A DNA stretch of 37,865 nt from Candidatus Hadarchaeota archaeon (GTDB lineage: Archaea > Hadarchaeota > Hadarchaeia > Hadarchaeales > Hadarchaeaceae), in the NCBI GenBank assembly GCA_964433595.1, contig CAYSRF010000002.1:1-37865 (forward strand), written 5' to 3'. Position 1 is the stretch's first letter, and each line of letters begins with the position of its first letter. The translations under genes were made by a program, and so were the position numbers. This document shows, piece by piece, positions 879 through 21,247 of this stretch. Under the pieces are notes generated by a model. The model was given only the letters and a program-made list of their open reading frames with translations. It was not told the DNA's origin and ran no database searches.

Positions 879-1733
879 ATGAAAAAACTGGGGAAGCTGT
901 TCAAGATAAGCCCAAAAGAGGCGGAAGCTCTTCTAAAACATCTTCGCTCTGCCTGGCGCCATGAAGAACTCATCCCGCAGCCAGAGGGTTACATTTTGAT
1001 CCCGCTTAAGCGTATTCGACCCCCATCTTGGGCGATTCGGGAAGAACTCGGAGATCTCGAAAAGTTAAAAGAGTCCATTCAAAGAACCGAGCTGCTCCAG
1101 CCCATCTGCGTCAAGCCTGTAGACAAGGAGTGGCGGAACTTCGAGCCCGTGATGGGGGTCAGACGATACTTCGCATGCAAAGAGTTGGAGCTGAAGCAAA
1201 TTCCATGTTTTATCAAGCCTCATGTGGACAAAGAGCAAGTGGCGATCCTTGCCTTGGAGGAGAACCGCTACCGGAAGGATTTGACCGAGGTCGAGCTCCT
1301 CCGCTCGGTGCAGGCGCTGAAGGCCAAAGGATACACGCTCGAGCGGATAGGGGAGCATGCTCGCATGAGCGTGGCTGATGTTTCGATATATCTTAGGATT
1401 CCAAAGCTCCCGAAGCAGCTCAGGGACGCGTTCTTCAGCAGGGAGATCTCTCTGGCTCACGTTAAGGTACTCGCGAGTTTGAAGCAAGAGGAGATGTTAA
1501 AGTTACTCAAGCTGGTGCGGAAGGAGCACTTGAGCTCGAGGGCTTTGGAAGATCTCGTGGCCGCGCAGGAAGGGAGGTTGGAAATTCCCTCTTTTCTGGA
1601 CTCGAAGGAACTCAGGAAACTCATTGGGTCGAGGCTGATCTTCAGGCGGCGGGGAAAGCGGGTCAGCCTCATGATAAGGGCTTCAAGCGAGGACGAACTT
1701 TTAGAAATCCTGGAAAAATTGAGAGAAAAATAG
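879..1733 (+). CDS. ParB/Srx N-terminal-domain protein (ParB-like nuclease/partition family)
   Basis: LIPLKRIRPP...LKESIQRTELLQPICVKPV...VMGVRRYFACKELELKQIPCFI contains the ParB box and GxRR motif. A helical HTH-like region follows. Confidence 0.6.
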   Translation: MKKLGKLFKISPKEAEALLKHLRSAWRHEELIPQPEGYILIPLKRIRPPSWAIREELGDLEKLKESIQRTELLQPICVKPVDKEWRNFEPVMGVRRYFACKELELKQIPCFIKPHVDKEQVAILALEENRYRKDLTEVELLRSVQALKAKGYTLERIGEHARMSVADVSIYLRIPKLPKQLRDAFFSREISLAHVKVLASLKQEEMLKLLKLVRKEHLSSRALEDLVAAQEGRLEIPSFLDSKELRKLIGSRLIFRRRGKRVSLMIRASSEDELLEILEKLREK

Positions 1734-1984: not shown

Positions 1985-2494
1985 ATGGCAAAGAACTATG
2001 TTTATAGAATGGACCACGATAGAGGATTTGCACCCAATACAAAATATGGTATTTGTACATTAAGTGGGTGCAAGAATAAGAAAACAAAAGATGGTAAACG
2101 CAATATTGAGGAATTGGCAGAAAAGGGTAGTTGGATAAGTGGAATAGGAGGCAACAAGACAGGCAAACCTGACAAGCTGGTATATGCTATGGAAGTAGAA
2201 GAGAATCTTTTATATTCTGAGTTCAAAAAAAGATACCCTGAGAAAAGTAAGTATTTGTCGTCAAAGAAGGCAGGAAGCAATGTATTGATTTCAAGGAAGT
2301 TCTATTATTTCGGGGATAACGCAATAGATTTACCACAAAGTTTAGAGCATATAATAATCCAGAGACAAGGATGCAAATGTATTTCCGATGATGATGTAAA
2401 CAACCTAAAAAAGTATCTCGAGGAAAGATACTGTTATGGAATATGGGGAAAGCCAAACAATATTAAATTTTCTAAAAGGTGTGGTAAATGTTAA
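1985..2494 (+). CDS. Nmad2-like (nucleotide-modification-associated domain 2) protein, putative
   Basis: N-terminus YVYRMDHDRGFAPNTKYGICTLSGCKNKK...GSWISGIGG...KLVYAMEVEE resembles the Nmad2 signature as I remember it (Y.Y...D.GFAPNP..G.CTLA.CKP ... GDWI.G ... L.YAM.V.E). It sits in an AT-rich block. Confidence 0.45.
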   Translation: MAKNYVYRMDHDRGFAPNTKYGICTLSGCKNKKTKDGKRNIEELAEKGSWISGIGGNKTGKPDKLVYAMEVEENLLYSEFKKRYPEKSKYLSSKKAGSNVLISRKFYYFGDNAIDLPQSLEHIIIQRQGCKCISDDDVNNLKKYLEERYCYGIWGKPNNIKFSKRCGKC

Positions 2495-2622: not shown

Positions 2623-3210
2623 ATGACGACAATGCTGAGAAAGATCGTAATTGATGACAAGTTCATAAAAGAGTGGCACCGCCGATACAACAAACCTGAG
2701 ATCGGAGGTGGCTACGTAGAATATGAAAACCTTATCGAAAAAGTTTCTAGAGAAGTTTCCCAAGGCGCAATCTCTAAATCCACATTTATTCGTATCTTGG
2801 ATTGGAAAGCGCCTCGTGTAAAAGGTATTGTAAAGTTGGACAACTTTGATGATTACGCGAAAGGTATCAAACAAGCTTTACAAGCTCCAGAAGATCGCAA
2901 GTTGCCAATTTTGGATGACTTATACGGTATTGGTGTTCCAGTTGCATCAACAATTTTACATTTTAGTTATCCATCAATTTTTCCAATTATGGATGTCCGA
3001 GTAGCAGAAGTTTTGTATTATTCTGGCTACCTTAACGCAAAATCAAGAACCCAGAATAATTATGTTAATTTTCGCAGAGTTATCTTGAATATCGCTCAAC
3101 AATCTAAATGTACACTCCGAGAGATAGATAAAGCTCTGTTTGCTTATCATAAGAGTGAACTCGAACCTAAAATTAGAGGTGCTATAGGAAAAGCGAAGAG
3201 GTGTTTGTAA
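2623..3210 (+). CDS. Helix-hairpin-helix protein, possible HhH DNA-glycosylase-superfamily member
   Basis: LPILDDLYGIGVPVASTILHFSYPSIFPIMDVRVAEVL is an HhH (hPhGIG-type) motif followed by an Asp-containing helix. No closer family recognised. Confidence 0.35.
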   Translation: MTTMLRKIVIDDKFIKEWHRRYNKPEIGGGYVEYENLIEKVSREVSQGAISKSTFIRILDWKAPRVKGIVKLDNFDDYAKGIKQALQAPEDRKLPILDDLYGIGVPVASTILHFSYPSIFPIMDVRVAEVLYYSGYLNAKSRTQNNYVNFRRVILNIAQQSKCTLREIDKALFAYHKSELEPKIRGAIGKAKRCL

Positions 3211-4022: not shown

Positions 4023-5318
4023 ATGTTATTGATGAAAGAAAAGAAATTATTCCCCAGAGATCTCTTGCCCAAGCTCGAAAAATGGATTGACCGGAGGGAA
4101 GCCTTCGCGATCAAGGGACCGAGGCAATCGGGCAAGACCACGCTTTTAAGGATCCTAGAGGAAAAGCTGGCCGACAAGGGAAACGTGGTCTTTCTGAATT
4201 TTGAGGACCCTGACGTTCTCGAGGCTTTTGAAGCGAACCCGAAGCGGTACGTCGAGAGCTTCATGCCCAAGCGGGGGAAGCACTATTTCTTGATGGACGA
4301 ATATCATTACGTCAAGGATCCGGGGAAGAAACTCAAACTGTTGTACGATAGCTTCGAGAACGCGAAGTTCGTGGTCACGGGTAGCTCTTCCTTAGAGCTG
4401 AGTGGTGCGATGGCGAAATTCTTGGTCGGAAGGGTGTTCTTCTTCGAGCTACTTCCCCTCAGCTTCCACGAATTTTTGGTTGCAAAGGACAAACGGTTGG
4501 GTAAGCTTTACGAGCGAAAGAACAGGGTGATCAAGGAGTTTCTGCTCCAAGGGAGGAGGGCAGGGCTGGAAGAGGATATCTTCATCGGGGAGTTCCAACC
4601 CTTCTTCCACGAGTACCTAACATTCGGCGGGTACCCGGCGGTGGTAAAGGCTGGAGACATCGAGACCAAGCGGATGATCCTGAAGGGCATCTACGACACC
4701 TACGTATCCAAAGACGTGATCGAATTCCTGAGATTCACGGATGCGTTCAAGTACCGGGATGCCGTCAGGGCCTTGGCGGCGTCGGTCGGGGGTTTGATAA
4801 GCTACCAGGGGATTGGCTCGGCCATCCAGAGCTACTTCAAGGAGCTGAAGAGGATCGTATCCATCTTATCTGAAACCTACGTGATAGCGCTGGTTCGGCC
4901 GTTCTCAAGGAATCCCAGGACCGAGCTCAGGAAGACCCCAAAGGTTTACTTTTTCGATCTGGGGTTGAGGAACCACGTGATAGACAACTTCAACCCGATC
5001 GAGAAGCGAACCGATGCGGGAGCGGTGGTCGAGAACCTAGTTTTGCTGGGCTTGATGCGCACTTTTCCGGGTGAGCCGATAAACTACTGGCGGACGATAG
5101 CGAAAGCCGAAGTCGACTTCGTGCTCAGGTTGGGCGGGGAGCTTGTCCCGGTCGAGGTCAAGTATCAAATTTTCAAAAGACCGAAGATATCGAGGAGTTT
5201 GCGGAGCTTCATCAACACCTACAAACCCGAACGCGTCTTGGTGGCCACCCGTGACTTTTGGGCGAGGGCCAAGCTAGGGGGGGCTGAAGTGTTGTTTGCG
5301 CCCGCTTGCTACCTGTAG
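4023..5318 (+). CDS. AAA-family ATPase with DUF4143-type C-terminal domain (COG1373-like)
   Basis: Walker A GPRQSGKTTLLR and Walker B YFLMDEYHYV. The C-terminal AEVDFVLR...VPVEVKYQ is a nuclease-like module typical of AAA_14/DUF4143 proteins. Confidence 0.7.
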   Translation: MLLMKEKKLFPRDLLPKLEKWIDRREAFAIKGPRQSGKTTLLRILEEKLADKGNVVFLNFEDPDVLEAFEANPKRYVESFMPKRGKHYFLMDEYHYVKDPGKKLKLLYDSFENAKFVVTGSSSLELSGAMAKFLVGRVFFFELLPLSFHEFLVAKDKRLGKLYERKNRVIKEFLLQGRRAGLEEDIFIGEFQPFFHEYLTFGGYPAVVKAGDIETKRMILKGIYDTYVSKDVIEFLRFTDAFKYRDAVRALAASVGGLISYQGIGSAIQSYFKELKRIVSILSETYVIALVRPFSRNPRTELRKTPKVYFFDLGLRNHVIDNFNPIEKRTDAGAVVENLVLLGLMRTFPGEPINYWRTIAKAEVDFVLRLGGELVPVEVKYQIFKRPKISRSLRSFINTYKPERVLVATRDFWARAKLGGAEVLFAPACYL

Positions 5319-5738: not shown

Positions 5739-7445
5739 TTAAGGCTTGGTTGCTATTTCCTCTTGAGTTGGTCTGCTTTTCTCTGGTATCGTCTGGATAA
5801 TCGCCCCTCGGAATAATTTCATCTGTTTTGCATACTCCAAAATATCGAGCTTCCCTCTTGTTGTTAATTCTAGTCTTGGGAAGATTTCTACATCAAGATC
5901 TGTCTCATCTTTCACCTTATTTACAATATCCTTGTATAACCCCAGTCCTATGAAGAAGATTTTATCGTGTCTCCTCAATTTACCTTTCAATTCTTCTACA
6001 AACTTTGGGACATCACTTTCCTGCATCTTGTAATCATAAGTTGGTATTCGCTTGCTCCAATCGATAAACCCGAATTTGGCCGAGAGGATCCCTATTTCTA
6101 CAGGTAAGTCAAAGATATTGTTCCAAAATACCTTGAAGACAGGTGAAGGCAGATACCTTTGATAAGCAGACAATAGTCCCGATGATTCATTTTTCTTCCC
6201 CGTGCAGCTCGTGAAGACGAAAATTCGAGGTGAAATTTCTCTGAGTTTTCTATAAAAAATGAATGTATTGTGAAAACCTCTCCGCCTGTTTCTGTTGTTT
6301 CCTCTGAAAATGATCACCTCAACTCCCACATTTTTGCAAATGGTACATGAACATTTTTTCCATGGCATATCAGTCAAAGTTTCCCTGTAATATTTTTCCA
6401 ATTCAGGTCTTTCGCCAATGGTTCTGTCGTATTCTAAAATTGTTTTCATTACTTCGGCAATTGGAATCTTACCTTGGTCGTATAGCCTCATGGACTCCAT
6501 TGCCTTTCTTTCCAGTTTCGCTAATTCTTCTGGATTTGAAATACTCTTAACACGATGACTTCTTTCTGTTTGCGGTATCCTAATCGCACTGTAACCCCTT
6601 CCGTCGACCGCATAATAATTATTTTGAGCACTTAGCCAAGCTCTTCTTAGAAATGATGCCGAATCAAAACTTGTTACTCCATATTTCATGAAATCTGGGA
6701 TTATTTGAGGTCTAGCGGCCCCAAAGACATGGATATCTATTTTACGTTTAGTTTCATCCATCTGTTTCTTAACTTCTAACCAAACCCCTTTAATTACATT
6801 AATAAGAGTTTTGGTCTCCTCTTTCTTACCTTCCAATCCAGTGGGGGCCCGAGCTAAACCCCCCAGGCCGATATAATCATAACCCACTTTCAACAATTCT
6901 CTAACAGCTCTCCTGTAGGAGTCTACATCCCAACCTTGAGCAACGCCAATTATTCTTATTGATTGCAAATACTCGTCTTTTGAATGCCATAATTCAAACA
7001 TTTCTTGTGCATTTTCAAGAGTTATTTTCCATCGTTTTTCATATTGGTCTTTATGCATAGGAACTATTAAATGATCAATTGAAACTCCGTAATTAAAACC
7101 GCATTTGAGGTAATAATCCAGAGTTTCAGAGGGTTTGAAGGGAGGTTCATCTTTATCTATGTACCCCCAGGCTCCACAGTCCCCCATAATCTCGAATGTT
7201 TTTGGTAAACGTAAGAATTGATGAATGCCTTCTCTTAGAATTTGTTGGTATTTTGCTTTATTTTCCACGATCTTCATTCTTGAAACTAGGACACCATCGA
7301 TTGGAACATTTTCCAGTCCAAAAATATTCCATACATAAACATCATTTTGTAAAGGATTTTCGTAATGAGTTTCTGAATGGTTGTCGGTGATGAAATCATA
7401 TTCGGGGTCTACACGATCGTCCCATTCTGGAATGAAGTACTTCAT
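5739..7445 (-). CDS. dpdA: TGT-superfamily transglycosylase, DpdA-like (putative DNA 7-deazaguanine transglycosylase), with an extra C-terminal domain of about 165 aa
   Basis: N-terminus MKYFIPEWDDRVDPEYDF. TIM-barrel motifs GDCGAWGY, IGLGGLARA, HVFGAARP and FDSASFLRR. Zinc site CSCTICKN-x22-H. No PUA tail. The C-terminal part (FVFTSCTGKK...ILSAKFGFI...IPTYDYKM) is reminiscent of a DUF6884-type domain, with low certainty. Confidence 0.65.
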   Translation of the reverse strand: MKYFIPEWDDRVDPEYDFITDNHSETHYENPLQNDVYVWNIFGLENVPIDGVLVSRMKIVENKAKYQQILREGIHQFLRLPKTFEIMGDCGAWGYIDKDEPPFKPSETLDYYLKCGFNYGVSIDHLIVPMHKDQYEKRWKITLENAQEMFELWHSKDEYLQSIRIIGVAQGWDVDSYRRAVRELLKVGYDYIGLGGLARAPTGLEGKKEETKTLINVIKGVWLEVKKQMDETKRKIDIHVFGAARPQIIPDFMKYGVTSFDSASFLRRAWLSAQNNYYAVDGRGYSAIRIPQTERSHRVKSISNPEELAKLERKAMESMRLYDQGKIPIAEVMKTILEYDRTIGERPELEKYYRETLTDMPWKKCSCTICKNVGVEVIIFRGNNRNRRRGFHNTFIFYRKLREISPRIFVFTSCTGKKNESSGLLSAYQRYLPSPVFKVFWNNIFDLPVEIGILSAKFGFIDWSKRIPTYDYKMQESDVPKFVEELKGKLRRHDKIFFIGLGLYKDIVNKVKDETDLDVEIFPRLELTTRGKLDILEYAKQMKLFRGAIIQTIPEKSRPTQEEIATKP

Positions 7446-7489
7446 TGAACTACCCCGCTAGATCTTGTTTACAAATAGATTTTCGTTGT

Positions 7490-7639
7490 TTATATTGTTG
7501 CATTCCTCTTTTCTCTGAAGTATTCGGCTAAAATCGATCTGATGGTTTCTTGAAGCGTATCTAGTCTTCTTCTTTTCTGCTCCAACTCTAAAGCTCGGTG
7601 CATAGATCCCGGGATAGACATAGTAAATTTCCTTGCCAT
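7490..7639 (-). CDS. Ribbon-helix-helix (CopG/Arc/MetJ-type) small DNA-binding protein, 49 aa (not in the ORF track)
   Basis: My own translation gives MARKFTMSIPGSMHRALELEQKRRRLDTLQETIRSILAEYFREKRNATI. An AAGGAG sits upstream. The beta-strand plus two-helix pattern is present. It is about 80 percent identical to the ORF at 11777..11917. It replaces the 72-aa track ORF, which is in another frame. Confidence 0.65.
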   Translation of the reverse strand: MARKFTMSIPGSMHRALELEQKRRRLDTLQETIRSILAEYFREKRNATI

Positions 7640-7704
7640 ACATCATTCTCCTTCTTTGGAATTCTTTGGAAACCAAAAGATATATAAATATACCATTCTA
7701 TAGA

Positions 7705-7726
7705 CTTCTTTAGACTTCTAAAGAAG
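7705..7726. promoter_or_regulatory. Perfect 10-bp inverted repeat CTTCTTTAGA-ct-TCTAAAGAAG in the divergent promoter region; candidate RHH operator
   Basis: Read directly from the sequence. It lies between the A/T-rich TATA-like tatataaatata (7681-7691) and ATG 7742. The core TCTTTAGA/TCTAAAGA recurs at 11923-11982 and 10973-10986. Confidence 0.5.
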
Positions 7727-7741
7727 CAAAAGTGAGTAAAT

Positions 7742-8806
7742 ATGATAATGGAAGGTTCCTTTCCGGTGGTTTACCCTAGCACGAAGGACATCATACTCTC
7801 ACAGTTAAACCTACAAAAGATAATGACAAGTGTAGCTTTTATAAACTCTGAGCAGAAAAAGCAGAACGTTCATGAAATCATAAATTTCAACAAATTAATC
7901 TTTTTAGATTGCGGAATTTTTCAAAGAGGTTCTTATAAAAAATACGACACATGGGGCAAGATATGCAAATACCGTGAAAAGCTTATTGATTGGTACGCCC
8001 ATCTCAAACCAGACCTTGCAAGTTCTCTAGATTTGCCTAGTCTACACATTTTCAAAGATAAAATTAGAAAGGAGAGATTAACTTGGTCGATTGAGAATTA
8101 CAAACTAATGAAAACTCAACTTGATGTTCCTTTAGTTCTCGGGATCAGCGTTTTTTCTATAGAGGATATTTATCTAACTAAAAACTATATTCAAAAGATT
8201 CTTGGGGAAGAACCTGTTCTCATAGGACTAGGTGGACTGGTTCCTCTAATGAGATCCTGTAAAACTCATCCCGCGCTTGGGAAATTGATCCTGAAAATAG
8301 TATACCAAACGCGAAAGAATTTTCCTCACTCTTTCATTCATGTTTATGGTCTGGGAGACCATCAATGGTACCCACTCACTCGGTTAGTTGGGGCATCAAG
8401 CAGTGATTACGCAGGATATTACTACATTACTGGTAGGGGGGGAATACTCCTACCGAATTCCTCGGAAAAGTATGTTCTTAGAATGATTAAGCAAAAAACT
8501 AAAAAAGGTTTTGTTTACTATACTCGTTCTAATAACAAAATATTTTCAATAAAGGAACTAAGGCAACTCTATGGATGTCGATGCCCTTCGTGTAAAGATT
8601 CGGATCCTACTTTACTAGAATTCGATCGCAAGAAACGTCTAGTCCATAACTTGTATACGATATTGTCCGAAACTAGGATTGTTGATGAGTATTGTAACCA
8701 AAATGATATTGAAAGATTAAAAAAATATGTGAAAGATCGATTCACTCATGGAAAGAATGAGATGAAAGCTTACGTGAAATACGCTCTAGAACTTGTGGAA
8801 AAGTGA
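7742..8806 (+). CDS. Second, highly divergent TGT-superfamily (DpdA-like) protein
   Basis: Motifs FLDCGIFQ (compare TGT DSGGFQ), IGLGGLVPL, HVYGLGDHQ and SSSDYAGYY, plus zinc site CRCPSCKD-x17-H. It has no PUA domain and no C-terminal extension. Confidence 0.6.
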   Translation: MIMEGSFPVVYPSTKDIILSQLNLQKIMTSVAFINSEQKKQNVHEIINFNKLIFLDCGIFQRGSYKKYDTWGKICKYREKLIDWYAHLKPDLASSLDLPSLHIFKDKIRKERLTWSIENYKLMKTQLDVPLVLGISVFSIEDIYLTKNYIQKILGEEPVLIGLGGLVPLMRSCKTHPALGKLILKIVYQTRKNFPHSFIHVYGLGDHQWYPLTRLVGASSSDYAGYYYITGRGGILLPNSSEKYVLRMIKQKTKKGFVYYTRSNNKIFSIKELRQLYGCRCPSCKDSDPTLLEFDRKKRLVHNLYTILSETRIVDEYCNQNDIERLKKYVKDRFTHGKNEMKAYVKYALELVEK

Positions 8807-8886
8807 AAAAATATAATGTCATTGGATTTACTAAGAAAAATTTTAGAAAATTTGTACGTGACTAAATCATGTCGTCGAAAACCAGA

Positions 8887-10791
8887 CTAACCCGGCGCAC
8901 CCGTTGATTCGATCTTCCTAATGAAATCGTCTAAATCGCTTAGATTCAGAAAAACGTATATTCCAGTTTTAGCAAGGTGGAAAAGGTCTTCCTCGCGCCA
9001 ATGTCCATCTGGCACGAAAAGAATCATGTAATCATCTTTATATTTGGTTTGGATACGTCCATTACTAGAATACACATCAAAAAGGGTTCCAAACGCCCTT
9101 CCAGACTCCTCAGGGCTTCGATGTTGGACTGTGCTACCCAGTGCGAATCTGGACTTTAGTAAGATCGTCATTTGATTACCCTTGATGCACCAGGGGTAGT
9201 TAACAGTACCTTGGTTATGGAGCAGACGTTCACCATGGTTAGGGTAAGTTTGTAGTTGATCTCTCCGAAGTTTAATCAATTGCTCGAATAGTGTCTTAAT
9301 CACATAATTCCTTTCATGTCTATATCTAGATACTATAGAGTTAATAACGTAGTCAATTGGGCTAACTTTTGGATTATTCAACTCTTGCCAAACTCGTTCC
9401 CCAACACTTCTTTTTGACGTAACCAAGCGGGAGTAGATTGTACCGTTACGAACCAACCGATCCCTCTCTTTCAACAATAAATTAGTCAATCTTGTCATTT
9501 CTTGTCTCGAGAAATCTCGAACATAGAAGTTGACTTCCATCCGGTTGGTTCGGATCACGGAACGGATACTGCTTTCCTTCAACCCGAAAACGTCAAGAAC
9601 GATTTTCCGCCAAATTCGCCTCTTCTCGATATCGGGAGTATTCCAAAATCGTTGAAGAGTATCGTTAAAATTTTTTGAAAATAAATCTTTGAGGTGGGCA
9701 CTATACTTCTCCCATTGCCGGAGGACATTGAAGTTATCCAGCAATTCTCCTCTCCTTTCACTTAATATTGTCGCTGCTGAAGTCTCTATCTGCTCTTCCG
9801 AAACCCCTAATTTGGAGAAATCGATAAACAAAGAAGAAACAATCATTTTTCTCCCTATCCGAAATTTCGCGTCACGGCTTCTCTTGATGAGATTCAAAGA
9901 GGTGATAAAATCAACTGCGTTCTTCACTTCCTCAACAGGTAAAGAAAGCGCATTCACGATCTCATCTAATTTACGGGTTCCATGAGAAATTAGGTACTTC
10001 AAAACCTTCTTTTCAGTATTTTCCAGTATAGCATTAAGGATAATGGCATATCTGAGTGAGGGTCGCGAACTTGGAACACCATATGTTTTGATCTGTTTTT
10101 CTAACAACTTCTGAGGAGAGATCCATCTAGGTCGTCTCGTTTTGAGATAGGAGTCTCGGCAAGAAGACCAAAAATACTCCAGCTCTGATCTTTTGAGTCT
10201 TGTGAGATTTTTGAAGTACACAATCAAATTGTTATAAGCCCACCTAACATTCTTCAAATCAGGCCCTGGTCTTTCGAACCTGCTCTGAATATACTTGTAA
10301 AATGGCCCCTCAGGTCTTTCCTCTTTCCATTTATTATGAAGATATTTCAAATCTTCCTCTAAAATGAAAAAGTCATCTTTTTTTTGGTATTGTGGGTAAA
10401 AAACTGAATCAAAAAGAACCTCCTTTCCGGAAAGTAACCATTTTGCCCAGTATTTCTTATTCCCGAAAACAATGTTCACTGCGATGCATTTTGGTCCCAA
10501 GATGCGGGAGAGTTTGATTTCTTTAAGTTCATCAAAAGTCTCCCATGCGGGATACTGTGAATTACGAGTTGGCGAATCTATCTCCTCCCCTGTTGTGCAG
10601 AAAATCGCATAACGTACATTTTTGTGTGAAAGTAAGATATCAACATGACATCTCAGAGAGGAGGAACTGAACTGGCGAGCGATGAACTTCGGATCATAGA
10701 TACTACTCAAAGCAGCATAGGTTAGTTGCTCTAATCGCCAACCATGATCGGCTGCAAGACCACGTCCTGGATGCCAAGTTTCTGCCGACAT
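8887..10791 (-). CDS. Hypothetical 634-aa protein with a central winged-helix-like segment; no recognisable family
   Basis: Long ORF in the AT-rich block. GGGAG precedes the ATG and TTTAAATA lies about 40 nt upstream. LKYLISHGTRKLDEIVNALSLPVEEVKNAVDFITSLNLIKR looks like a wHTH. The terminal regions have possible nuclease-like acidic motifs (HVDILLS..., ...DYMILFVPDGHWREED), which are unproven. Confidence 0.55.
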   Translation of the reverse strand: MSAETWHPGRGLAADHGWRLEQLTYAALSSIYDPKFIARQFSSSSLRCHVDILLSHKNVRYAIFCTTGEEIDSPTRNSQYPAWETFDELKEIKLSRILGPKCIAVNIVFGNKKYWAKWLLSGKEVLFDSVFYPQYQKKDDFFILEEDLKYLHNKWKEERPEGPFYKYIQSRFERPGPDLKNVRWAYNNLIVYFKNLTRLKRSELEYFWSSCRDSYLKTRRPRWISPQKLLEKQIKTYGVPSSRPSLRYAIILNAILENTEKKVLKYLISHGTRKLDEIVNALSLPVEEVKNAVDFITSLNLIKRSRDAKFRIGRKMIVSSLFIDFSKLGVSEEQIETSAATILSERRGELLDNFNVLRQWEKYSAHLKDLFSKNFNDTLQRFWNTPDIEKRRIWRKIVLDVFGLKESSIRSVIRTNRMEVNFYVRDFSRQEMTRLTNLLLKERDRLVRNGTIYSRLVTSKRSVGERVWQELNNPKVSPIDYVINSIVSRYRHERNYVIKTLFEQLIKLRRDQLQTYPNHGERLLHNQGTVNYPWCIKGNQMTILLKSRFALGSTVQHRSPEESGRAFGTLFDVYSSNGRIQTKYKDDYMILFVPDGHWREEDLFHLAKTGIYVFLNLSDLDDFIRKIESTGAPG

Positions 10792-10980
10792 TTTTCTCCC
10801 TATTGAATTTGTTTACATTTTTGGATTAAAAACTATTTAAATCATTTTACGTTAATTTTGCCGCGAAAATAAGCTGACCCATGGAGAATGGTGCTATAGG
10901 TCCCCGAAGGGCCTAAGAAAGCTGTTAGAGAAACACCCAAAGTTACTAACACGAAAAATTTAGGGGACATGACTTTAGAT

Positions 10981-11775
10981 TTAGAATTTAAGATTCCGTT
11001 GAATAAACGACTCAACTTGACGGTTCTTGGTTTGAAAATTTTTCTTTTCTGTATCAAAATCATCTATTATGCACACCTTTTCCCTCGCAAACTCCGATTC
11101 TATTACATGGGCAAAAGGCAAATTCAAATTAGATAGAATTAATATCGCGGTTGGTCTAAAAATTTTGAGATAATTTTTTATTTGCTCTTTTAACCTCCTT
11201 TCAGGCTTCCCAAGTGTTGGGTCAACGATCATTCTTGGGTTGATCACCTTTCCCTTGCCTAGCGGTTCTGGGCCGAAATCATTCACTATTGGGATATATG
11301 CTTGGATTTTTTCGAAGTCATCTACAAGTTCAAGTCTCCAATACATATTCACTGTTTCTCTAAAGGGCGAAAGACGTTTAATCTTCACATAGATTTGTCC
11401 TAAAACAATAGAGATGTCTGGCCTAAGACGGCTTCGCAGAGGTGGATAACCATCGTAGTAAATAGATAAGGTCAGATCTGTTCTATGTCTTAGAACTATT
11501 GATGGGGACAACCAATTTGCTAACTGAAGGATCGGGATTCTCGATATGCGGATGCCACGCGTCATTGAGAATTTTGGGGCGATGACGTGATTTGAGTCAA
11601 TGTATTTTGGTAGTGGTTTGAAATCAAGTTTTGTTAGATCTTGGAAGATACAATTAAAGACAAACTCTTCATATTTTCTAAACTTAGATCTTCTTTCTCT
11701 TGAGCTAAATGAAATCCCATAACTCGACAGAGGATAACCGTTCGAAGAACCACCATCTTTCATTGATTGATACAT
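10981..11775 (-). CDS. Hypothetical protein of about 264 aa, no recognisable family
   Basis: I prefer ATG 11775, which is 1 nt after the stop of the RHH gene, over the track GTG at 11835, which lies inside the RHH gene. RPDISIV and MIVDPTLGKPERRLKEQIK are weak PD-(D/E)xK-like hints only. Confidence 0.5.
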   Translation of the reverse strand: MYQSMKDGGSSNGYPLSSYGISFSSRERRSKFRKYEEFVFNCIFQDLTKLDFKPLPKYIDSNHVIAPKFSMTRGIRISRIPILQLANWLSPSIVLRHRTDLTLSIYYDGYPPLRSRLRPDISIVLGQIYVKIKRLSPFRETVNMYWRLELVDDFEKIQAYIPIVNDFGPEPLGKGKVINPRMIVDPTLGKPERRLKEQIKNYLKIFRPTAILILSNLNLPFAHVIESEFAREKVCIIDDFDTEKKNFQTKNRQVESFIQRNLKF

Positions 11776-11776
11776 T

Positions 11777-11917
11777 CTACCCCATTTTTTCTCTGAAATA
11801 TTCAGCAAGAAGTGATCGAATGGTCTGTTGGACACTATCGAGTCGTCTTCTCTTTTTTTCTTCTTCTAAAGCCCTAAGCATAGATTCTGGAAGGGACATA
11901 GTGAATTTTCTTGCCAT
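11777..11917 (-). CDS. Ribbon-helix-helix small DNA-binding protein, 46 aa, paralog of 7490..7639 (not in the ORF track)
   Basis: My own translation gives MARKFTMSLPESMLRALEEEKKRRRLDSVQQTIRSLLAEYFREKMG. Its stop TAG (11779-11777) is followed after 1 nt by the ATG of the next gene. Confidence 0.65.
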   Translation of the reverse strand: MARKFTMSLPESMLRALEEEKKRRRLDSVQQTIRSLLAEYFREKMG

Positions 11918-11922
11918 AGCTA

Positions 11923-11982
11923 TCTAAAGAAATCTAAAGAGGGGAGAACTTAAAGAAGGGTTGTTCTTTAGAATGCTAAAGA
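11923..11982. promoter_or_regulatory. Cluster of TCTAAAGA/TCTTTAGA sites upstream of the second RHH gene; candidate operator array
   Basis: Tandem tctaaaga at 11923-11930 and 11933-11940. Inverted repeat TCTTTAG-aatg-CTAAAGA at 11965-11982. A related cttaaagaag at 11949-11958. Confidence 0.5.
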
Positions 11983-11997
11983 CTTAATTTGACGTCC

Positions 11998-12008
11998 AAA
12001 AAAAAAAA
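11998..12008 (-). terminator. T11 tract (minus strand) just downstream of queD; archaeal oligo-T terminator candidate
   Basis: An A11 run on the plus strand sits 46 nt past the queD stop and separates the que operon from the next promoter region. Confidence 0.45.
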
Positions 12009-12053
12009 CGTCTTTAAGGATAAAAAATAATAACTAGCTTACTATTTTTTTGA

Positions 12054-12524
12054 TTACCTTATCTTTTTCTCAAAACATGCAAACTGACCGGGAGACTCTT
12101 CAACCTTGACAATTATCTTTTTAATATTTTTATGTTCACTCAAACTTTCGGCGAGTTCGTTCGCGATTAGCCTAGCAATCTCCTCAACTGTAGTGTTAAC
12201 GATAGGCAACCAAACAACATCTTCGGACGGAAATCCAAACTCCTTACCATGAAAATTTATGAGAGTTTTGCCCTCGATAGATCCCTCTCTTCTTAACTCG
12301 TTTTTCTCTGGCAACAATAGCCTGTGATCATATCGATCGCAGATCTCATCAACTTTTTTCTTCAACTTGATGAAATCAACAACAAGTCCTCTTTCATCAG
12401 GCTCACCCTCAATGCTGACCCCAACTTTCCAGTTATGGCCATGCAAATGCTCACATTTCTCATGCCCGATAATTAAATGTGTGGCCGAAAAACCGATGTT
12501 TTCCTTTTCTAGCCCGATCCTCAA
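12054..12524 (-). CDS. queD: 6-carboxy-5,6,7,8-tetrahydropterin synthase
   Basis: PTPS-family motifs SATHLIIGHEKCEHLHGHNWKV. TTG start overlaps the upstream stop (TTGA). Confidence 0.8.
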   Translation of the reverse strand: MRIGLEKENIGFSATHLIIGHEKCEHLHGHNWKVGVSIEGEPDERGLVVDFIKLKKKVDEICDRYDHRLLLPEKNELRREGSIEGKTLINFHGKEFGFPSEDVVWLPIVNTTVEEIARLIANELAESLSEHKNIKKIIVKVEESPGQFACFEKKIR

Positions 12525-13450
12525 CTGTTCACCTCCAGTTCCACCTTTAAATCAGAGACAAACCCTTCCCTTTCCGCAAAAGCATCATGTTGATGTATGC
12601 TTTCAAGGTTGAGCTGTTTTGCGGTCACATAGGCATCGCCAGGGAGATCCGGATACCTGTTCAGTAACCCTCTGATCATCTCCCTCACGGTTTCCTCAAC
12701 GAATTTTGGCTTAAGATAAGCCCTAGTTATGACCTCAACTTCATCCTCACGTTTCAGGATCTCGTAAAGTTGTTCGCTCATGGAACCCTCAACAATTTTG
12801 ATCAAGTCTTCGGCCTCAACTCGATAACCAAGCGAGAGTTCGACCATTAAAGTGCCCGTACCTCGCTGACTATGTGAAGCAATCGGTATTCTTTGTAGGA
12901 TTTCGTCGATTTTCGCCTTATCTATCCCAGATTTCTCTAATTCCTCCCTAACCCTTGATTCCATAACTTCTTGAGCACAAGGGCAGGTTGTCATCCCCTG
13001 TACTTCGACCCCGATCGTCCTCTTCATTTTCGTTTTTCCATCAATTTTCTCAGCTTTTGCCCCGGCCAAAAGTTTGTATAAAGTCTGGGTTTTTGTCTTG
13101 AGTTTCGGGGTTTCCCTAATTACCGGATAGTCAGCCCTAACCCTGACCTCGGCTTTTTTTGCATTTGGATGAACTCTAAGTAATTTTAATGCAATCTCCG
13201 AGCACATGTCTTCAGTATCCGAAATCTGACCTGTTGCGACTTCTTCGATTGCCTCGTTTATTACTTGAGTGCTTCTCGACATGTGAATTCCAGTCTGTCT
13301 AGGGTCAAGATCAACATAGGCCTCGATTTCGGTATTAAGGAAGTTCTCTTGTTCGCCCCTCTTTCTATAAATCTGCTTTCTGACGTTTGTAACTCCCACC
13401 CTGCTAAGCCTTATTGGAAATGTTGATTTTTTGTCCTGAAACTCCATCAT
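12521..13450 (-). CDS. folE2: GTP cyclohydrolase IB family (FolE2/MptA type)
   Basis: Motifs MTTCPCAQE and [10 protein letters not shown], with a length typical of COG1469 enzymes. ATGA overlap with queE. Confidence 0.75.
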
Positions 13451-14217
13451 AACACATCCATCAACTTATGAACTTGGGGAATCACCATGACGTTTTCAGG
13501 TTCGAAGACCTTTCCAGCTATTTCGGCAAGTCTGAAAAGCTCCTCTGTTGATGGCCGTTCCTTCACGGTTCCTGTGGGGGTAACGGGTTGGATCACGAAT
13601 CTGATTTTCAGGTCCGACAAGTCATTACATACTTTTCTGAACTCGTCGGGGTTGGTATTGGGGAGGATTATCGTCTTTACTATTGTATCAAGTCCGTGTT
13701 TAACTGAAGTTTTGATGCATCCTATCTCATTCTCATAGAGTTTTTCCCAACCGTTTTCTGAGGTGGCGTTATGATTTTTTGGAAGCTTCACATCGATTGC
13801 AGCGTAATCAAAATGATCGACGACTTTTTCAAATGTGGATTTTAATGCCCCATTTGTCTCAAGGTAATTTCTCCAACCTTGCACGCGACACCCTTTGGCA
13901 AGCGATCCAAGGAAATCCCCCGAAAGAAGAGGTTCGCCACCTGTGAATGATATGCTATGAAGATCAGGAGTAAAAAGCAATTTAACTGATTTTATAATGT
14001 CATTTACATCTATCGGATTTTTCACTGTCTTGAAGTTTTTTGATCCAGCTTTGGTTTCTATCCTACAAACATCGGGCCTCATTTCCTTAAACTGGAGAGT
14101 GTCACAATAATTGCAATTTAAGTTGCAACCAGCGATCCTCACAAATATCTGCCTTCGGCCGACATAGGGTCCTTCGCCTTGAAACGAACTGAAGATCTCG
14201 CCTACATAACCTTTCAT
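13447..14217 (-). CDS. queE: 7-carboxy-7-deazaguanine synthase (radical SAM)
   Basis: N-terminus [34 protein letters not shown] is the QueE signature with the radical-SAM cysteine cluster. Confidence 0.85.
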
Positions 14218-14219
14218 GG

Positions 14220-14900
14220 TTAGACCTCGTACTTGATTGGATCCTTAACCCCAACTTCCCTGAATCCCCTTTTCCTATGCTGACAACTTTCACAGACTCC
14301 GCAATGTTTTTCTTTACCAAAATAGCAACTCCAGGTCAATTCAAATGGAGCATTGACTTCTATTCCCTTCTTAATGATGCCCACTTTGTTCAAGTTAATT
14401 AAAGGGGCCTCGATCTTTGGTTTAGGTTCTGTGAAGGAAGCTGTTCCCCGCTCTAAAATAAGGTTAAATGCTTCCACGAAGGGAGGTCTATTATCCGGAT
14501 ACCCCAATCCCTCCTCTGCGTTAAATCCAACGAATATTTTTTCAGCTCTCAGACTTTCAGCATAAGCTCCCGCTAAAGACAACAAGACGGTGTTTCTCAT
14601 AGGAACCCATGTTGGAGGGGTTTCCTTTGCCCTTAACGAAACTTCTTTTTTAACCGGAATCTCTAAGCTTTCATCGGTCAAACTTGAATGCCCCAATTCT
14701 TTCAAAAATGTTAAATCGACGAACTTCCTTTCTTTGGCCCCTAATCTCTCGGCTATTTTCTTAACAGCTTCTATTTCCCTTTTCTCAGCTTTATGTCCAT
14801 AATTAGCGTGAAGAATGTAGATTTCGTATCCCTGCTTTTTCGCGATCGTTGTTGCGACGGTTGAATCAAGTCCTCCTGAAAGAACGCAAACAATTTTCAT
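14220..14900 (-). CDS. queC: 7-cyano-7-deazaguanine (preQ0) synthase
   Basis: PP-loop VLSGGLDST and C-terminal zinc site [14 protein letters not shown]. Confidence 0.85.
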
Positions 14901-15223
14901 TTCAACCTTCCCCCTAGAAGATCTTCGTATACTTCCCTCATGTAGAAGACGCTGGCCGCAGTTTCCTCATCTAATCCACATCTACAGGCCCTGCACTTCG
15001 GGCAGATCAACCATCCACATTTTGGACAGACATCAGTTTTGGTGACATCGAATTTCTCCCCACATTTGAAACAATAGACCTCGGGTTTTGTGAAAAATTT
15101 CAAAAAGTTCTCAATTGCTCTTGAGAGAGGTATGCGCCTTTCATCTGATGTTTTCTTTGCTTCTTCAACCACATCCTCGTCTACTGTAATAGTCAACTTC
15201 GTTTTCTTATTCGACGTAGTCAT
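14897..15223 (-). CDS. Ribbon-helix-helix domain fused to a double CxxC zinc ribbon; first gene of the que operon (putative regulator)
   Basis: KLTITVDEDVVEEAKKTSDERRIPLSRAIENFLKFF is an RHH. It is followed by CFKCGEKF...CPKCGWLICPKCRACRC. ATGA overlap with queC. Confidence 0.6.
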   Translation of the reverse strand: MTTSNKKTKLTITVDEDVVEEAKKTSDERRIPLSRAIENFLKFFTKPEVYCFKCGEKFDVTKTDVCPKCGWLICPKCRACRCGLDEETAASVFYMREVYEDLLGGRLK

Positions 15224-15510: not shown

Positions 15511-15608
15511 TTTTGGACACCATTCTAAGACTCTTGTTAACTTTTATTGCCATCTCACCTAAGATCTAAATAAAGATAAAAGAGATTCTCTTGCAAGAGT
15601 TTGGTAAT

Positions 15609-16535
15609 ATGGGATCCGAGGAAGAAGTTCAAACTCGAAAAACGCAAATTGAAACACACAAAGAGAATCTTCGTAGAGCGATCGAAAAAGCAGAGGCAGC
15701 TAAAGAAGCTCTAAGAGAGGGGATAGCTAACAGGAAAAGGGTATGTGGGGATTTAGATGGGATAAAAGAATTGTCCTCTCAAGAACTTTCTGCGTTAGAA
15801 ATCATCGAACCTTTGGTTGCAAAAATTGATGACGATACCTGGCAAAGTTACGAAGGAATAGCATGTAGTGGTGCAGATTTATCTGGAACATTAAGTGCTT
15901 TCCATCGAGATATTCAAACTGAAGAAGCTGAATTCAGTGAAATTGCTACCGTATCTGGAGCTTCCATTACAACCGCTACTACTAGTGCAGTAAGTGTGGT
16001 CGATCTTTTTTCAGATTTCGATCTCCGTGTTAAAGAAATAAAGATACAAGATACTATCGTGAAGAATATAGAATTTATCCAGAACCGATTAAGCGAAATA
16101 GATCCGTCAATTGCTCAAGGAATCAGAATTCTTTTCCAAGATTGGAGTAGTTTGCCAAATTTTGAGAAATCAAAAAGGTTACTTGATTTAAGATCGTTGT
16201 TATTCTATCAATTTTTTGATCGATTTGCTCCAGAACACAGTTATTCAAAATGTCAATGGTACCGAGATGCAAAAGAAGGAACAATCTGTAGAAAAATGCG
16301 TTTTGCCCAGGTTAAGTTCTTTATTCAGGATTGCAGGGACGATTCAGAAATTAAGGAGTCGGTTCTCAAATCAATTGATTCTACGGCTAAGGATATGTCC
16401 CGCAATTTTGATGATATGTCGAATTATGGCAAACATGGAACATCAGGATCTGTGGCGGAGAGCGTATTTAGAGGCACAATCTCTTCTTTTGCAAACGTTC
16501 TGAGATTAAGAGACCAACTACGGGAGGTTTCCTAA
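15609..16535 (+). CDS. Hypothetical protein with an N-terminal coiled-coil-like region
   Basis: I prefer ATG 15609. An A/T-rich box taaataaagataaaag lies 25-40 nt upstream, and the palindrome CTCTTGCAAGAG (15588-15599) lies between them. No family recognised. Confidence 0.45.
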   Translation: MGSEEEVQTRKTQIETHKENLRRAIEKAEAAKEALREGIANRKRVCGDLDGIKELSSQELSALEIIEPLVAKIDDDTWQSYEGIACSGADLSGTLSAFHRDIQTEEAEFSEIATVSGASITTATTSAVSVVDLFSDFDLRVKEIKIQDTIVKNIEFIQNRLSEIDPSIAQGIRILFQDWSSLPNFEKSKRLLDLRSLLFYQFFDRFAPEHSYSKCQWYRDAKEGTICRKMRFAQVKFFIQDCRDDSEIKESVLKSIDSTAKDMSRNFDDMSNYGKHGTSGSVAESVFRGTISSFANVLRLRDQLREVS

Positions 16536-20167: not shown

Positions 20168-21247
20168 ATGGAACAATCAGAACCCGAGGGAATAAACAAA
20201 GAGATCCTAAAGACCCTCAGAAAAAATAGAAGAGTTCGGCGAAGGTTTGACCTAAGGTCAATTGACCAGCAACTAATAGAGTTCCTTAGTGAGTCAGGTT
20301 TTGACAAGCGAAAAGAACTAGCTATTTCAATGGTAAGGGCTGTGTTGAAGAAACATGGAAAAGAAAATCCCTTAGCTGCCTTTTCGTCGCGTCTATCTCA
20401 GATTGAAATTGGTATTCAACAGTTTAGTCCTTATTTACGAGATCATGTGACTCATTCTACCTACGTATTTCTTCTCGGATTATTTTTTATGAACAAAGTC
20501 AATAAAATTGAAAAGAAAGTTCAAAAACCTCTGAGTTGGAAATTGGCAGCACTCCTTCACGATATTGGTTACCCCGTCGAACTCTTCGCTCGCTCAACTG
20601 ACGATTATCTAAAACGCATTAACGCTTTGAAGACAGAGATCCCACAGAGGAGTGGCTCAAAGCGGTCTCGACTTCATTATGCAGTAAATATTCTGGGTCT
20701 TGAGGAACTAAGTTCAGGACAAAATGCTTTCAAACTAATCGAAAATCGGTTGGGAGAGTGGGGTATTGAGCTTAAACTTAAAAAAATCTTCAATCAAAAA
20801 TTGAAAAGAGGAATTATAGATCATGGGATTTTAAGTGCTCTGGTAGTTTTGAACATCATTGACGCGTTATATACGAGATATAATCCGGAACATCTTGAAG
20901 AATCGGTTGTTGTTGAAGGTATAGACTGGAACATAAAATTTTTCAGAGGTGAAGTGTTGGATGCGGTTACGGCTATCGCGATTCATAATTTGTTGGAAAA
21001 GATAGTTTTTGAAGAGGCCCCTTTGGCTTACCTCCTTGTACTCAGCGATATCCTCCAAGAGTGGGATAGATACTCTGCTGGTCAAAGGGTATATGACCCA
21101 TATTCAGTCAAAATAGAATTTTCGAAAGATAACATCATTTTGTGTAAACTGAACTTGCCAGAGATGAAATATCGAGAAATCAAGAACGTAATTGAGGAAA
21201 AACTTAAAGCGAAGGCGTTTCAAATTAAATGTGAGACGAAGTATTAA
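20168..21247 (+). CDS. HD-domain metal-dependent phosphohydrolase family protein
   Basis: H...HD...D pattern: LRDHVTHSTY, AALLHDIGYPVE, IIDHGILSALV. Confidence 0.6.
   Translation: MEQSEPEGINKEILKTLRKNRRVRRRFDLRSIDQQLIEFLSESGFDKRKELAISMVRAVLKKHGKENPLAAFSSRLSQIEIGIQQFSPYLRDHVTHSTYVFLLGLFFMNKVNKIEKKVQKPLSWKLAALLHDIGYPVELFARSTDDYLKRINALKTEIPQRSGSKRSRLHYAVNILGLEELSSGQNAFKLIENRLGEWGIELKLKKIFNQKLKRGIIDHGILSALVVLNIIDALYTRYNPEHLEESVVVEGIDWNIKFFRGEVLDAVTAIAIHNLLEKIVFEEAPLAYLLVLSDILQEWDRYSAGQRVYDPYSVKIEFSKDNIILCKLNLPEMKYREIKNVIEEKLKAKAFQIKCETKY

Follow-up and report, generated by a model that had tools for sequence, protein, structure and literature searches.

A Dpd-type locus without DpdB in a Hadarchaeota archaeon: a DpdA-DUF6884 fusion and a second, arcTGT-like transglycosylase in a predicted 7-deazaguanine DNA modification module

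The stretch of DNA analyzed here (37,865 nucleotides of contig CAYSRF010000002.1, from the Candidatus Hadarchaeota archaeon assembly GCA_964433595.1; hereafter, the window) encodes two TGT-fold proteins head to head. The larger, of 568 amino acids (aa; 5739-7445, minus strand), is by its sequence a DpdA with a DpdC-like DUF6884 domain fused to its C terminus; the smaller, of 354 aa (7742-8806, plus strand), is a paralog that resembles the catalytic domain of the archaeal tRNA enzyme arcTGT, and we refer to it as TGT2. We consider it reasonably likely that these genes and their neighbors, spanning positions 5739-15223, form a self-contained Dpd-type module for 7-deazaguanine modification of DNA, one that operates without DpdB and that combines two independent DNA transglycosylases with in-cis conversion of the inserted base to 7-amido-7-deazaguanine (ADG). 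The components of this module are of known kinds; for their combination, we found no description.

A preliminary description of this DNA had proposed two very divergent TGT paralogs transcribed divergently, and both open reading frames (ORFs) exist with the coordinates and sizes it gave. All of the TGT motifs it quoted are found in both proteins. In the 568-aa protein, these are GDCGAWGY (residues 88-95), IGLGGLARA (192-200), HVFGAARP (239-246), FDSASF (260-265), and the zinc motif CSCTICKN (365-372) with His392, followed in the tail by FVFTSCTGKK (409-418), ILSAKFGFI (453-461), and IPTYDYKM (467-474). In the 354-aa protein, they are LDCGIFQ (55-61), IGLGGLVPL (161-169), HVYGLGDHQ (200-208), SSSDYAG (219-225), and CRCPSCKD (279-286) with His302. 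The spacing from the zinc motif to its histidine has to be corrected, from 22 to 19 residues in the larger protein and from 17 to 15 in the smaller. The two are indeed very divergent paralogs: BLASTP aligns 246 aa of the two with 21% identity (E 0.001), and a comparison of their profiles relates them with a probability of 98% (E 3e-13). Alignment to TGT and DpdA structures shows the catalytic residues to be intact in both.

Residues 1-403 of the fusion (6237..7445, minus strand) constitute the DpdA domain, as judged by family and structure matches. The NCBIfam DpdA model NF041059 scores 393.1 bits against an equivalog cutoff of 200, and its match spans exactly these residues and model positions 1-405 of 406; the PADLOC DpdA model matches with an E value of 9e-109, and a sequence search finds the crystal structure of DpdA from Salmonella enterica serovar Montevideo (PDB 7UI4) with an E value of 2e-72. 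An AlphaFold2 model built from 42 homologs (pLDDT 91.4, pTM 0.89) returns the same structure at rank 1 in Foldseek (E 6e-34, target TM score 0.85, root-mean-square deviation 2.7 Å, 32% identity), with the next TGT match at least 24 orders of magnitude worse. The essential residues of the Salmonella enzyme are D95 as acid/base, D256 as nucleophile, and D130 for base binding (PMC10164549). Their equivalents in the window are D89 (for D95), D124 (D130), and D261 (D256), while G195/G196 correspond to G206/G207 and H181 is replaced by Q170; the zinc ligands are C365, C367, C370, and H392. All of these positions, Q170 included, are invariant in the 42 homologs. Based on these sequence and model comparisons, the 568-aa protein is a bona fide DpdA, as annotation pipelines already name it, and its DpdA domain is predicted to be a DNA-guanine transglycosylase that puts preQ0 into DNA.

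What, then, is the tail? Pfam, motifs, and a family profile all point to a DUF6884 (DpdC-like) domain in residues 404-568 (5739..6236, minus strand, including the stop codon). DUF6884 had been the candidate named in the preliminary description, and that guess stands up: the Pfam match lies below the gathering score, and both defining motifs are in place, CxxxK as C414-K418 (SCTGKK) and LSAxxG as L454-G459 (LSAKFG). According to the Pfam curators, these two motifs form the putative DUF6884 active site (PMC11701544). Among homologous tails, 108 of 109 keep CxxxK and 102 of 109 keep LSAxxG, and many close homologs of the fusion have a precomputed PF21818 match. The connection to DpdC is transitive and runs through a profile built from archaeal tails. 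This profile scores 22 bits on DpdC of Agrobacterium, 21 bits on that of Enterobacter, and 31-42 bits on the DUF6884 domains fused to bacterial DpdAs, and it matches neither DpdA nor DpdB. The fused bacterial DUF6884 domains and the C-terminal domain of the Haloferax protein in turn match the PADLOC DpdC models (E 5e-14 to 5e-9), the same models that detect the genes adjoining annotated dpdA and dpdB on Enterobacter, Agrobacterium, and Sinorhizobium plasmids (E 1e-86 to 1e-142). DUF6884 is related to YaaA/DUF328, and DpdC is labeled DUF6884 in one paper and DUF328 in older ones. By sequence, the large protein is thus a DpdA::DpdC-like fusion in which the DpdC part is cut to its N-terminal domain. 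DpdC converts preQ0 in DNA to ADG (nitrile to amide), and by analogy, the tail would convert the preQ0 inserted by its own DpdA domain to ADG in DNA. An unrelated housekeeping domain was also considered for the tail and rejected, the sole matches being DUF6884 and the PADLOC family PDC-M57A.

Relatives of the fusion's DpdA subtype occur at 520 places in the genomes of 185,579 species and span Aenigmatarchaeota, Bathyarchaeia, methanogens, Haloferax, Asgard archaea, cyanobacteria, Paenibacillus, and Chloroflexi. We took a census of the best 80 genome loci of DpdA-DUF6884 relatives (locus numbers below carry the prefix L), 45 of which had full flanks. DUF6884 is fused C-terminally in 17 of the 80 (mostly archaea) and N-terminally in 40 (cyanobacteria, Paenibacillus, Bacillus, and others), and in 17 of the remaining 23 it is a separate nearby gene (Asgard archaea and Chloroflexi). 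It is thus fused or adjacent in 74 of 80 loci, and its occurrence in either order or next door is the pattern expected of a two-step pathway acting on one substrate. In a profile search, DpdB exceeded 40 bits in none of the 80 related loci, the single match being one of 15 bits in L027; as a control, the profile found DpdB in L005, L007, and L011. The same profile, built from five annotated DpdBs, matched none of the ORFs of the window. A ParB-like gene of the window (879-1733, plus strand; ParB_N and HTH_ParB, TIGR00180 85 bits) was considered as a hidden DpdB and rejected, being of the classical ParB/Noc type, with host-like G+C content and no match to the DpdB profile.

TGT2 (7742..8806, plus strand) belongs elsewhere in the TGT fold. 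Its AlphaFold2 model (pLDDT 94.1) has as its best PDB match in Foldseek the P. horikoshii arcTGT (1IQ8; E 8e-16, TM score 0.71), followed by QTRT1 and bacterial TGT; normalized to the target, the TM score to 1IQ8 is 0.45, with about 220 residues of 1IQ8 lacking a counterpart. DpdA 7UI4 is not among the top 50 matches. A TGT2 family profile finds 1IQ8 with an E value of 5.7e-17 and 7UI4 with one of 0.39, and TGT2 matches neither the PADLOC DpdA model nor NF041059; its best NCBIfam model is TgtA (TIGR00432). On these comparisons of sequence and model, TGT2 is not a DpdA. The profile alignment pairs its D56, D97, and D222 with the arcTGT motifs DSGSF, LDIP, and FDSAS and its C279/C281/C284/H302 with CSCPVC...H. 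D56, D97, G164, G165, H200, D222, C279, C281, C284, and H302 are all invariant in the TGT2 family (20 members, 53% mean column identity), and, more broadly, the three aspartates are present in 46 of 46 second-TGT sequences from related loci and the zinc site in 39 of 46. Given the invariant Asp triad and zinc site, TGT2 is neither decayed nor a dead subunit of the QTRT2 kind, and as judged from this conservation, it is almost certainly a catalytically active, conserved enzyme. The suggestion that one paralog might be a noncatalytic reader is therefore dropped, and with it that of a decayed duplicate.

Is TGT2 then simply a tRNA enzyme, a minimal, island-borne arcTGT that places preQ0 at G15 of host or element tRNA and does not act on DNA? 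Its best structure and profile matches are to arcTGT and its best NCBIfam match is to TgtA, its catalytic and zinc residues lie at nearly the positions they have in P. horikoshii arcTGT, and preQ0 is the arcTGT substrate. We nevertheless regard this as quite improbable. The TgtA score is 51.7 bits against an equivalog cutoff of 350. The chain stops where the arcTGT catalytic domain stops and lacks the C1-C3/PUA tRNA-binding domains (354 versus 577 residues). The core family turned up nowhere except next to DpdA-DUF6884. For a housekeeping enzyme, it is very rare: 5.8 billion proteins yield 24 clusters at 90% identity, and an exhaustive HMMER search yields about 17 representative clusters at 50% identity. 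Nor was it found in the GTDB species-representative genomes under the patterns searched. Finally, its G+C content is that of the island: module genes have 36-43% G+C, with TGT2 in a stretch of 36-38%, versus 55-57% for host genes (the archaeal housekeeping genes for GGGP synthase and PFOR, at the far end of the window). The adjacency to DpdA-DUF6884 described below, the G+C content, and the missing PUA and other C-terminal tRNA-binding domains together tie TGT2 to a DNA system rather than to tRNA. The protein is also strongly basic, with a pI of 9.5. An ordinary ArcTGT/ArcS pair was rejected on the same TgtA score, an ArcS score of 11 bits against a cutoff of 440, and the identity of the large protein as DpdA. 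We also rejected a viral origin: TGT2 gave no tblastn match in 50,697 phage records and was not found under the patterns searched in 2.9 million IMG/VR contigs, the DpdA fusion subtype occurs in 2 viral contigs, and viral TGT-like models fit TGT2 less well than arcTGT does (best TM score 0.65).

The pairing itself is conserved. In 10 of 10 distinct loci, the DpdA-DUF6884 gene adjoins a member of the TGT2 core family, head to head in 7, and these 7 keep a small ribbon-helix-helix (RHH) gene between the two. With DpdA-subtype relatives at only 520 places, 10 of 10 adjacency puts the pairing far beyond chance. Does such linkage mean that the two proteins work as one enzyme? TGT2 could be an obligate partner of DpdA in a heterodimer like QTRT1/QTRT2, replacing DpdB in opening or positioning the DNA. 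Strict adjacency, a divergent promoter region of about 100 bp common to both genes, the absence of the DpdB that canonical DpdA needs, and the precedent of the eukaryotic heterodimer of TGT paralogs would all be accommodated. Against this, TGT2 keeps all of its catalytic residues, unlike the accessory QTRT2, S. Montevideo DpdA is a monomer, phage DpdA2 modifies DNA in Escherichia coli without other phage genes, and many related loci (20 of 45) have no second TGT within 10 kb. Nor does the divergence of the two proteins run in parallel: pairwise divergence of DpdA and TGT2 is uncorrelated across 8 loci (r = 0.14), and between the window and L003, for example, the values are 38% for DpdA and 55% for TGT2. 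We take this to mean that the two genes have been reshuffled rather than having coevolved, and a heterodimer, one of three options raised in the preliminary description, appears distinctly unlikely. Of those three options, different substrates or targets is the best that remains.

Second transglycosylases are common around the wider set of relatives. A second small TGT (297-361 aa) lies within 10 kb of the DpdA-DUF6884 gene in 25 of the 45 full-flank loci, in archaea and bacteria alike, and annotated two-TGT examples without dpdB are found in Haloferax alexandrinus pBNX82-4, Paenibacillus sp. 37, Picosynechococcus PCC 73109, and Nostoc NIES-3756. These second TGTs are diverse, and the TGT2 family of the window is one branch among them, 24% identical to the Haloferax protein. 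One locus, L016 (ena:ERZ27247235 k141_519707), has a TGT2-like gene as its sole transglycosylase, with no DpdA in its 13 kb; its other genes encode a stand-alone 148-aa DUF6884 protein, a Vut_1 transporter, a DUF6364 protein, an N6/N4 DNA methyltransferase, HerA, NurA, and an Orc/Cdc6-like ATPase. A TGT2-like protein accompanied by DUF6884 in the absence of DpdA suggests that the wider clade includes DNA insertases, since a DpdC-like partner would be of use only to a TGT that inserts preQ0 into DNA. Several loci also have a third TGT paralog, a stand-alone DpdA-like protein of about 390 aa that lacks DUF6884 and scores 294-354 bits on the DpdA-domain profile (L001/L103, 3917-5089; L100, 990-2177; L104, 4228-5400; L014, 13319-14488; L017, 8293-9456; and L018, 5679-6857). 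In L104, a separate DUF6884 gene adjoins it. The window has two transglycosylases versus three in these loci.

The supply of preQ0 appears to be built into the module. A preQ0 biosynthesis operon (12054..14900, minus strand) encodes QueD (12054-12524; Pfam PTPS, 9e-27), FolE2 (12521-13450; GCHY-1, 2.8e-67), QueE (13447-14217; Radical_SAM, 2.4e-14), and QueC (14220-14900; Pfam QueC, 4.6e-70, and PADLOC QueC, 3e-26), and preQ0 genes also accompany the TGT pair in L003, L004, and L014. The first gene of the operon (14897..15223, minus strand) encodes a 108-aa DUF6364 protein (Pfam E 1.8e-10) with an RHH-like N terminus and a zinc ribbon (weak RHH_3 and zinc ribbon matches). Members of this family lie next to genes for preQ0 synthesis or for transporters in 7 of the related archaeal loci, a recurrence that suggests a dedicated regulator of precursor supply. 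Such a setting brings to mind type IV CBASS, in which Cap10 attaches a 7-deazaguanine to a protein N terminus. A TGT-family enzyme working with a QueC-like protein is reported to conjugate a nucleobase to a protein in an antiphage system, and the window has its own defense-island surroundings, with TIR, PDC-S01, and pPIWI-nuclease-like genes. That TGT2 modifies a protein is nonetheless highly improbable: Pfam and PADLOC matched no CD-NTase or other CBASS component in the window proteins to which they were applied, QueC is canonical and sits in a complete preQ0 operon, and no Cap10 structure is among the top 50 PDB fold matches of TGT2.

Two further genes lie between TGT2 and this operon. The first (8887..10791, minus strand), a conserved neighbor of TGT2, encodes a protein of 634 aa that has a winged helix-turn-helix (wHTH) domain in its middle part (Pfam HTH_9, E 8.6e-5). 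The wHTH resembles the TFE/Lrs14 type: residues 249-306 weakly match TFIIE_alpha, and a profile of the family finds TFE in the PDB (1Q1H) with an E value of 3e-4. Besides the 3 homologs found among the 5.8 billion proteins, L104 and L101 encode more divergent ones; each directly follows TGT2, in 6 core-family loci that include L003, L099, L100, L104, and L101. Many charged residues are invariant at both ends of the protein (e.g., E84, K93, D595, E601, and D602), and no recognizable nuclease or NTPase signature was found in it. The second gene (10981..11835, minus strand) encodes an orphan of 284 aa with no match in Pfam, NCBIfam, PADLOC, or PDB sequences and with a homolog of 53% identity at the same position in L099. 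For these two neighbors together, sequence and profile searches of the same collections yielded the wHTH alone.

In related loci, the company is often more heavily armed. In 8 archaeal loci, the second TGT forms a cassette with a wHTH-like protein of about 285 aa (F285) and a BrxD-like AAA ATPase of about 400 aa (L006, L012, L020, L021, L023, L024, L029, and L034; also L025). Elsewhere, second TGTs lie in NTPase operons, in the order helicase-TGT-helicase in cyanobacteria and with a KAP NTPase in Paenibacillus. A UvrD-like helicase and a PD-(D/E)XK nuclease often precede DpdA-DUF6884 (L019, L025, L029-L031, L034, L042, L062, and L075), and an AGOG-like N-glycosylase/DNA lyase follows it in L020, L023, and L024. 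By analogy, the operons of second TGT and NTPase may echo DpdA/DpdB, and a role in restriction fits them equally. None of 15 partner-family profiles, built from families that recur around archaeal relatives, other than those already identified in the window (including BrxD-like ATPase, UvrD, PD-(D/E)XK, HerA, NurA-like, PLD, large helicase, GmrSD, and AGOG-like proteins), matched in the window, and by these profiles, its module has no recognizable nuclease, helicase, or ATPase partner.

Could TGT2 itself be the restriction or readout arm? On this account, TGT2 would flip and attack unmodified guanine in foreign DNA, leaving a covalent Asp-deoxyribose adduct or an abasic site, while self DNA carrying 7-deazaguanine would be chemically immune. 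The TGT mechanism does proceed through a covalent enzyme-nucleic acid intermediate. The module of the window lacks the recognizable partners that its relatives possess (UvrD with PD-(D/E)XK, HerA with NurA, PLD with helicase, or a BrxD-like ATPase), which means that if the module restricts DNA at all, this activity would have to come from TGT2 or from one of the 634-aa and 284-aa proteins, and in relatives, the second TGT lies inside an NTPase/helicase operon and not beside DpdA. However, TGT2 has the active site of an ordinary exchange enzyme, the association with ATPases fits ATP-assisted insertion just as well, as in DpdA/DpdB, and L016 suggests that TGT2-like enzymes act as modifiers. We therefore view a restriction arm as unlikely.

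The 296 bp between the two TGT-fold genes, 62% identical across 6 loci, are not empty. The genes are head to head as the preliminary description had it, and it overlooked a 49-aa ORF (7490..7639, minus strand) upstream of and codirectional with the DpdA fusion, with the protein sequence MARKFTMSIPGSMHRALELEQKRRRLDTLQETIRSILAEYFREKRNATI. This small protein is encoded in 8 loci, with the consensus MARKFTMSIPxSMxxALExExxxRKLDTIQETIRSILAEYFRE, and in L001 and L004, gene callers place a gene of 47-49 aa here. With a Pfam RHH_1 score of 20.4 bits (E 4.7e-4), the L103 ortholog comes just under the cutoff of 20.5, and the copy in the window has a weak MetJ match only; it is a probable RHH regulator of the CopG/MetJ type. 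Since this ORF occupies much of the intergenic DNA, the true divergent promoter region measures about 100 bp, from the RHH gene to TGT2 (7640..7741). Within it lie an A/T-rich, TATA-like box, TATATAAATATA, some 50 nucleotides upstream of the TGT2 ATG and a perfect 10-nucleotide palindrome, CTTCTTTAGA-ct-TCTAAAGAAG, at 7705-7726; when the region is aligned with its counterparts in other loci, the palindromic CTTCTAAAGA/TCTTTAGAAG element is seen there as well. We infer that this region acts as promoter and operator and, going by its sequence, that the 49-aa protein is probably an RHH controller that coregulates the RHH-DpdA unit and TGT2.

In total, we propose a model in which the FolE2-QueD-QueE-QueC operon would make preQ0 from GTP, and the DpdA domain would swap guanines in DNA for preQ0 by the double displacement typical of TGT, with D261 as the nucleophile and D89 as the general acid/base. 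Once in the DNA, this base would become the substrate of the fused DUF6884 domain, whose most likely reaction is hydration of the nitrile to the amide, giving dADG. We posit that TGT2 is a second, independently acting transglycosylase that was recruited from an arcTGT catalytic domain and that most likely also inserts preQ0 into DNA, in a sequence context or on a strand different from that of DpdA; the adjacent 634-aa wHTH protein possibly guides it. The 49-aa RHH protein would probably bind the palindrome in the shared region of about 100 bp and so set the expression of both transcription units together. In a milder alternative to a restriction role, DpdA and TGT2 may be partners, each specific for a strand or motif, that between them mark the two strands of an asymmetric site.

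Several observations weigh against the proposed module. At 22.2 bits (E 1.7e-4), the window tail falls short of the PF21818 gathering score of 30 (the bacterial N-terminal DUF6884 domains, at 45-48 bits, exceed it), the PADLOC and NCBIfam DpdC models have no direct match to the tail at an E value of ≤1, and the 165-aa tail aligns to the N-terminal half of DpdC (about 300 aa) only, the C-terminal half being missing; its chemistry may therefore differ from that of DpdC. The nearest structural relative of TGT2 is a tRNA enzyme, and where TGT and DpdA have the Gln/His that reads the base, the TGT2 core family, and it alone, has Ser136, such that TGT2 could be specific for a base or substrate other than preQ0 and G. 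With no second TGT within 10 kb in the 20 full-flank loci noted above, TGT2 would be an accessory and not a core requirement. With no recognizable nuclease, helicase, or ATPase partner in the module, a restriction function is hypothetical. Finally, the products of all module members are deduced from sequences and models.

The low-G+C stretch that holds the module extends to about 26.3 kb and includes other defense-type genes. PADLOC, run on 18 proteins of the window, gave no Dpd match except DpdA and thus no DpdD-K. Upstream of the module, two genes of 35-37% G+C encode a protein with nucleotide modification-associated domain 2 (Nmad2; 1985-2494, plus strand) and a 195-aa protein (2623-3210, plus strand) weakly like HhH N-glycosylases/DNA lyases (NF002305, E 2.8e-5; Ogg-HhH and DUF6308 weak). 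These may be a second defense pair related to DNA modification or repair, and no homologs of the pair were found in the related loci checked (L001-L016). An AAA_14-DUF4143 ATPase gene (4023-5318, plus strand) of the PADLOC candidate defense family PDC-S01 (E 8e-82) is convergent with the DpdA fusion and, at 53% G+C, is unlike the island. At the far end of the island, an 882-aa protein (23634-26282, minus strand) begins with a WD40 propeller, has a Roc/Ras-like GTPase, and ends with a TIR domain (TIR_2, E 9e-19; PADLOC PDC-S66, E 5e-19); it is probably a separate, NAD+-depleting defense gene. Further island genes encode a pPIWI-associated-nuclease-like protein (15591-16535, plus strand; PF18165, E 1.3e-7), a weak HD-domain protein (20168-21247, plus strand), and an HxlR/CARF-like wHTH protein (22230-23141, plus strand). 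HxlR-type regulators recur in L001, L004, and L014.

How new is such a module? 7-Deazaguanine modification of DNA has been reported for bacteria, phages, and archaeal viruses, and the sole characterized cellular system needs DpdB in vitro. The literature covers bacterial DpdA with DpdB and DpdC, phage DpdA1-4, Cap10, and the single-TGT system known as HerA/FtsK-centred BREX-related capture (BRC); in it, we found no description of DpdA-DpdC fusions, of a cellular Dpd type without DpdB, of paired TGT paralogs, or of the RHH gene. In this respect, the preliminary description is borne out, while its term "two-DpdA" does not hold, the 568-aa protein being the one DpdA of the pair. What emerges is a widespread cellular variant that has no DpdB, that has a DpdC-type domain fused to DpdA in either order, and that often has a second transglycosylase. 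If the proposed model is correct, archaeal chromosomes should contain dPreQ0/dADG, DpdB should be dispensable for putting preQ0 into DNA, and a tRNA transglycosylase should have been recruited to a DNA system independently of DpdA. If TGT2 were a restriction arm after all, restriction by transglycosylation would be the principle, and this would explain a module without a nuclease. Cultured carriers include H. alexandrinus pBNX82-4, Methanosarcina sp. Mfa9, Picosynechococcus PCC 73109, Nostoc NIES-3756, and several Paenibacillus strains. Should the enzymes prove to be compact, ATPase-independent, and possibly sequence-specific base-exchange enzymes, they are potential tools for site-specific labeling of DNA.

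Known systems serve as a framework in which to place the module, and each shares a part of it. In type IV CBASS, Cap10 comes with a CD-NTase and the QueC-like Cap9; no CD-NTase was matched among the scanned proteins of the window, and its QueC is part of a complete preQ0 operon. In BRC, a TGT homolog without DpdB or DpdC has been predicted to be a DNA self-marking enzyme in archaeal and bacterial defense loci (PMC12839542). Some relatives of the window locus share HerA/NurA or BrxD-like ATPases with it; the window, in contrast, lacks PglZ, DUF6079, the STAND NTPase, DUF4007, HerA, and GNAT and has two TGT paralogs and a DpdC-like domain where BRC is described with one TGT and as expressly lacking a DpdC homolog. 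With QTRT1/QTRT2, the window has in common that two TGT-fold paralogs occur together, and QTRT1 ranks near the top in the fold search with TGT2. However, QTRT2 is noncatalytic, whereas both paralogs of the window keep the full catalytic apparatus and show no coevolution.

The DpdA1-DpdA4 proteins of phages and archaeal viruses are likewise TGT-fold DNA transglycosylases with co-occurring preQ0 genes, and phage DpdA2 works in E. coli without DpdB. They differ from the window in that TGT2 is closer to arcTGT than to the viral models and in that the DpdA fusion subtype is mostly cellular (520 places versus 2 viral contigs). With arcTGT (TgtA; P. horikoshii 1IQ8), TGT2 shares the (β/α)8 catalytic domain, the DxGxF, LDxP, GGxVP, and D-S/Y motifs, and a CxCxxC...H zinc site at almost identical residue numbers. 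The two are 18% identical, and TGT2 lacks the C-terminal domains, is genomically tied to a DNA modification gene, and has Ser136 in place of the base-reading Gln.

The closest comparison is with the bacterial Dpd system (dpdA-dpdK) of S. Montevideo. The two have in common an orthologous DpdA (32% identity to 7UI4, TM score 0.85) with the same catalytic aspartates and zinc site, a DpdC-family domain, clustered preQ0 genes, and a location on a horizontally mobile island. In Salmonella, insertion of preQ0 in vitro required DpdB, a DGQHR ParB-like ATPase (PMC10164549), which the module of the window does not have; here, DpdC is cut to its N-terminal domain and fused to DpdA, and no DpdD-K proteins were detected. 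To the bacterial scheme, the window adds an arcTGT-like second transglycosylase, an RHH gene, and an archaeal host.

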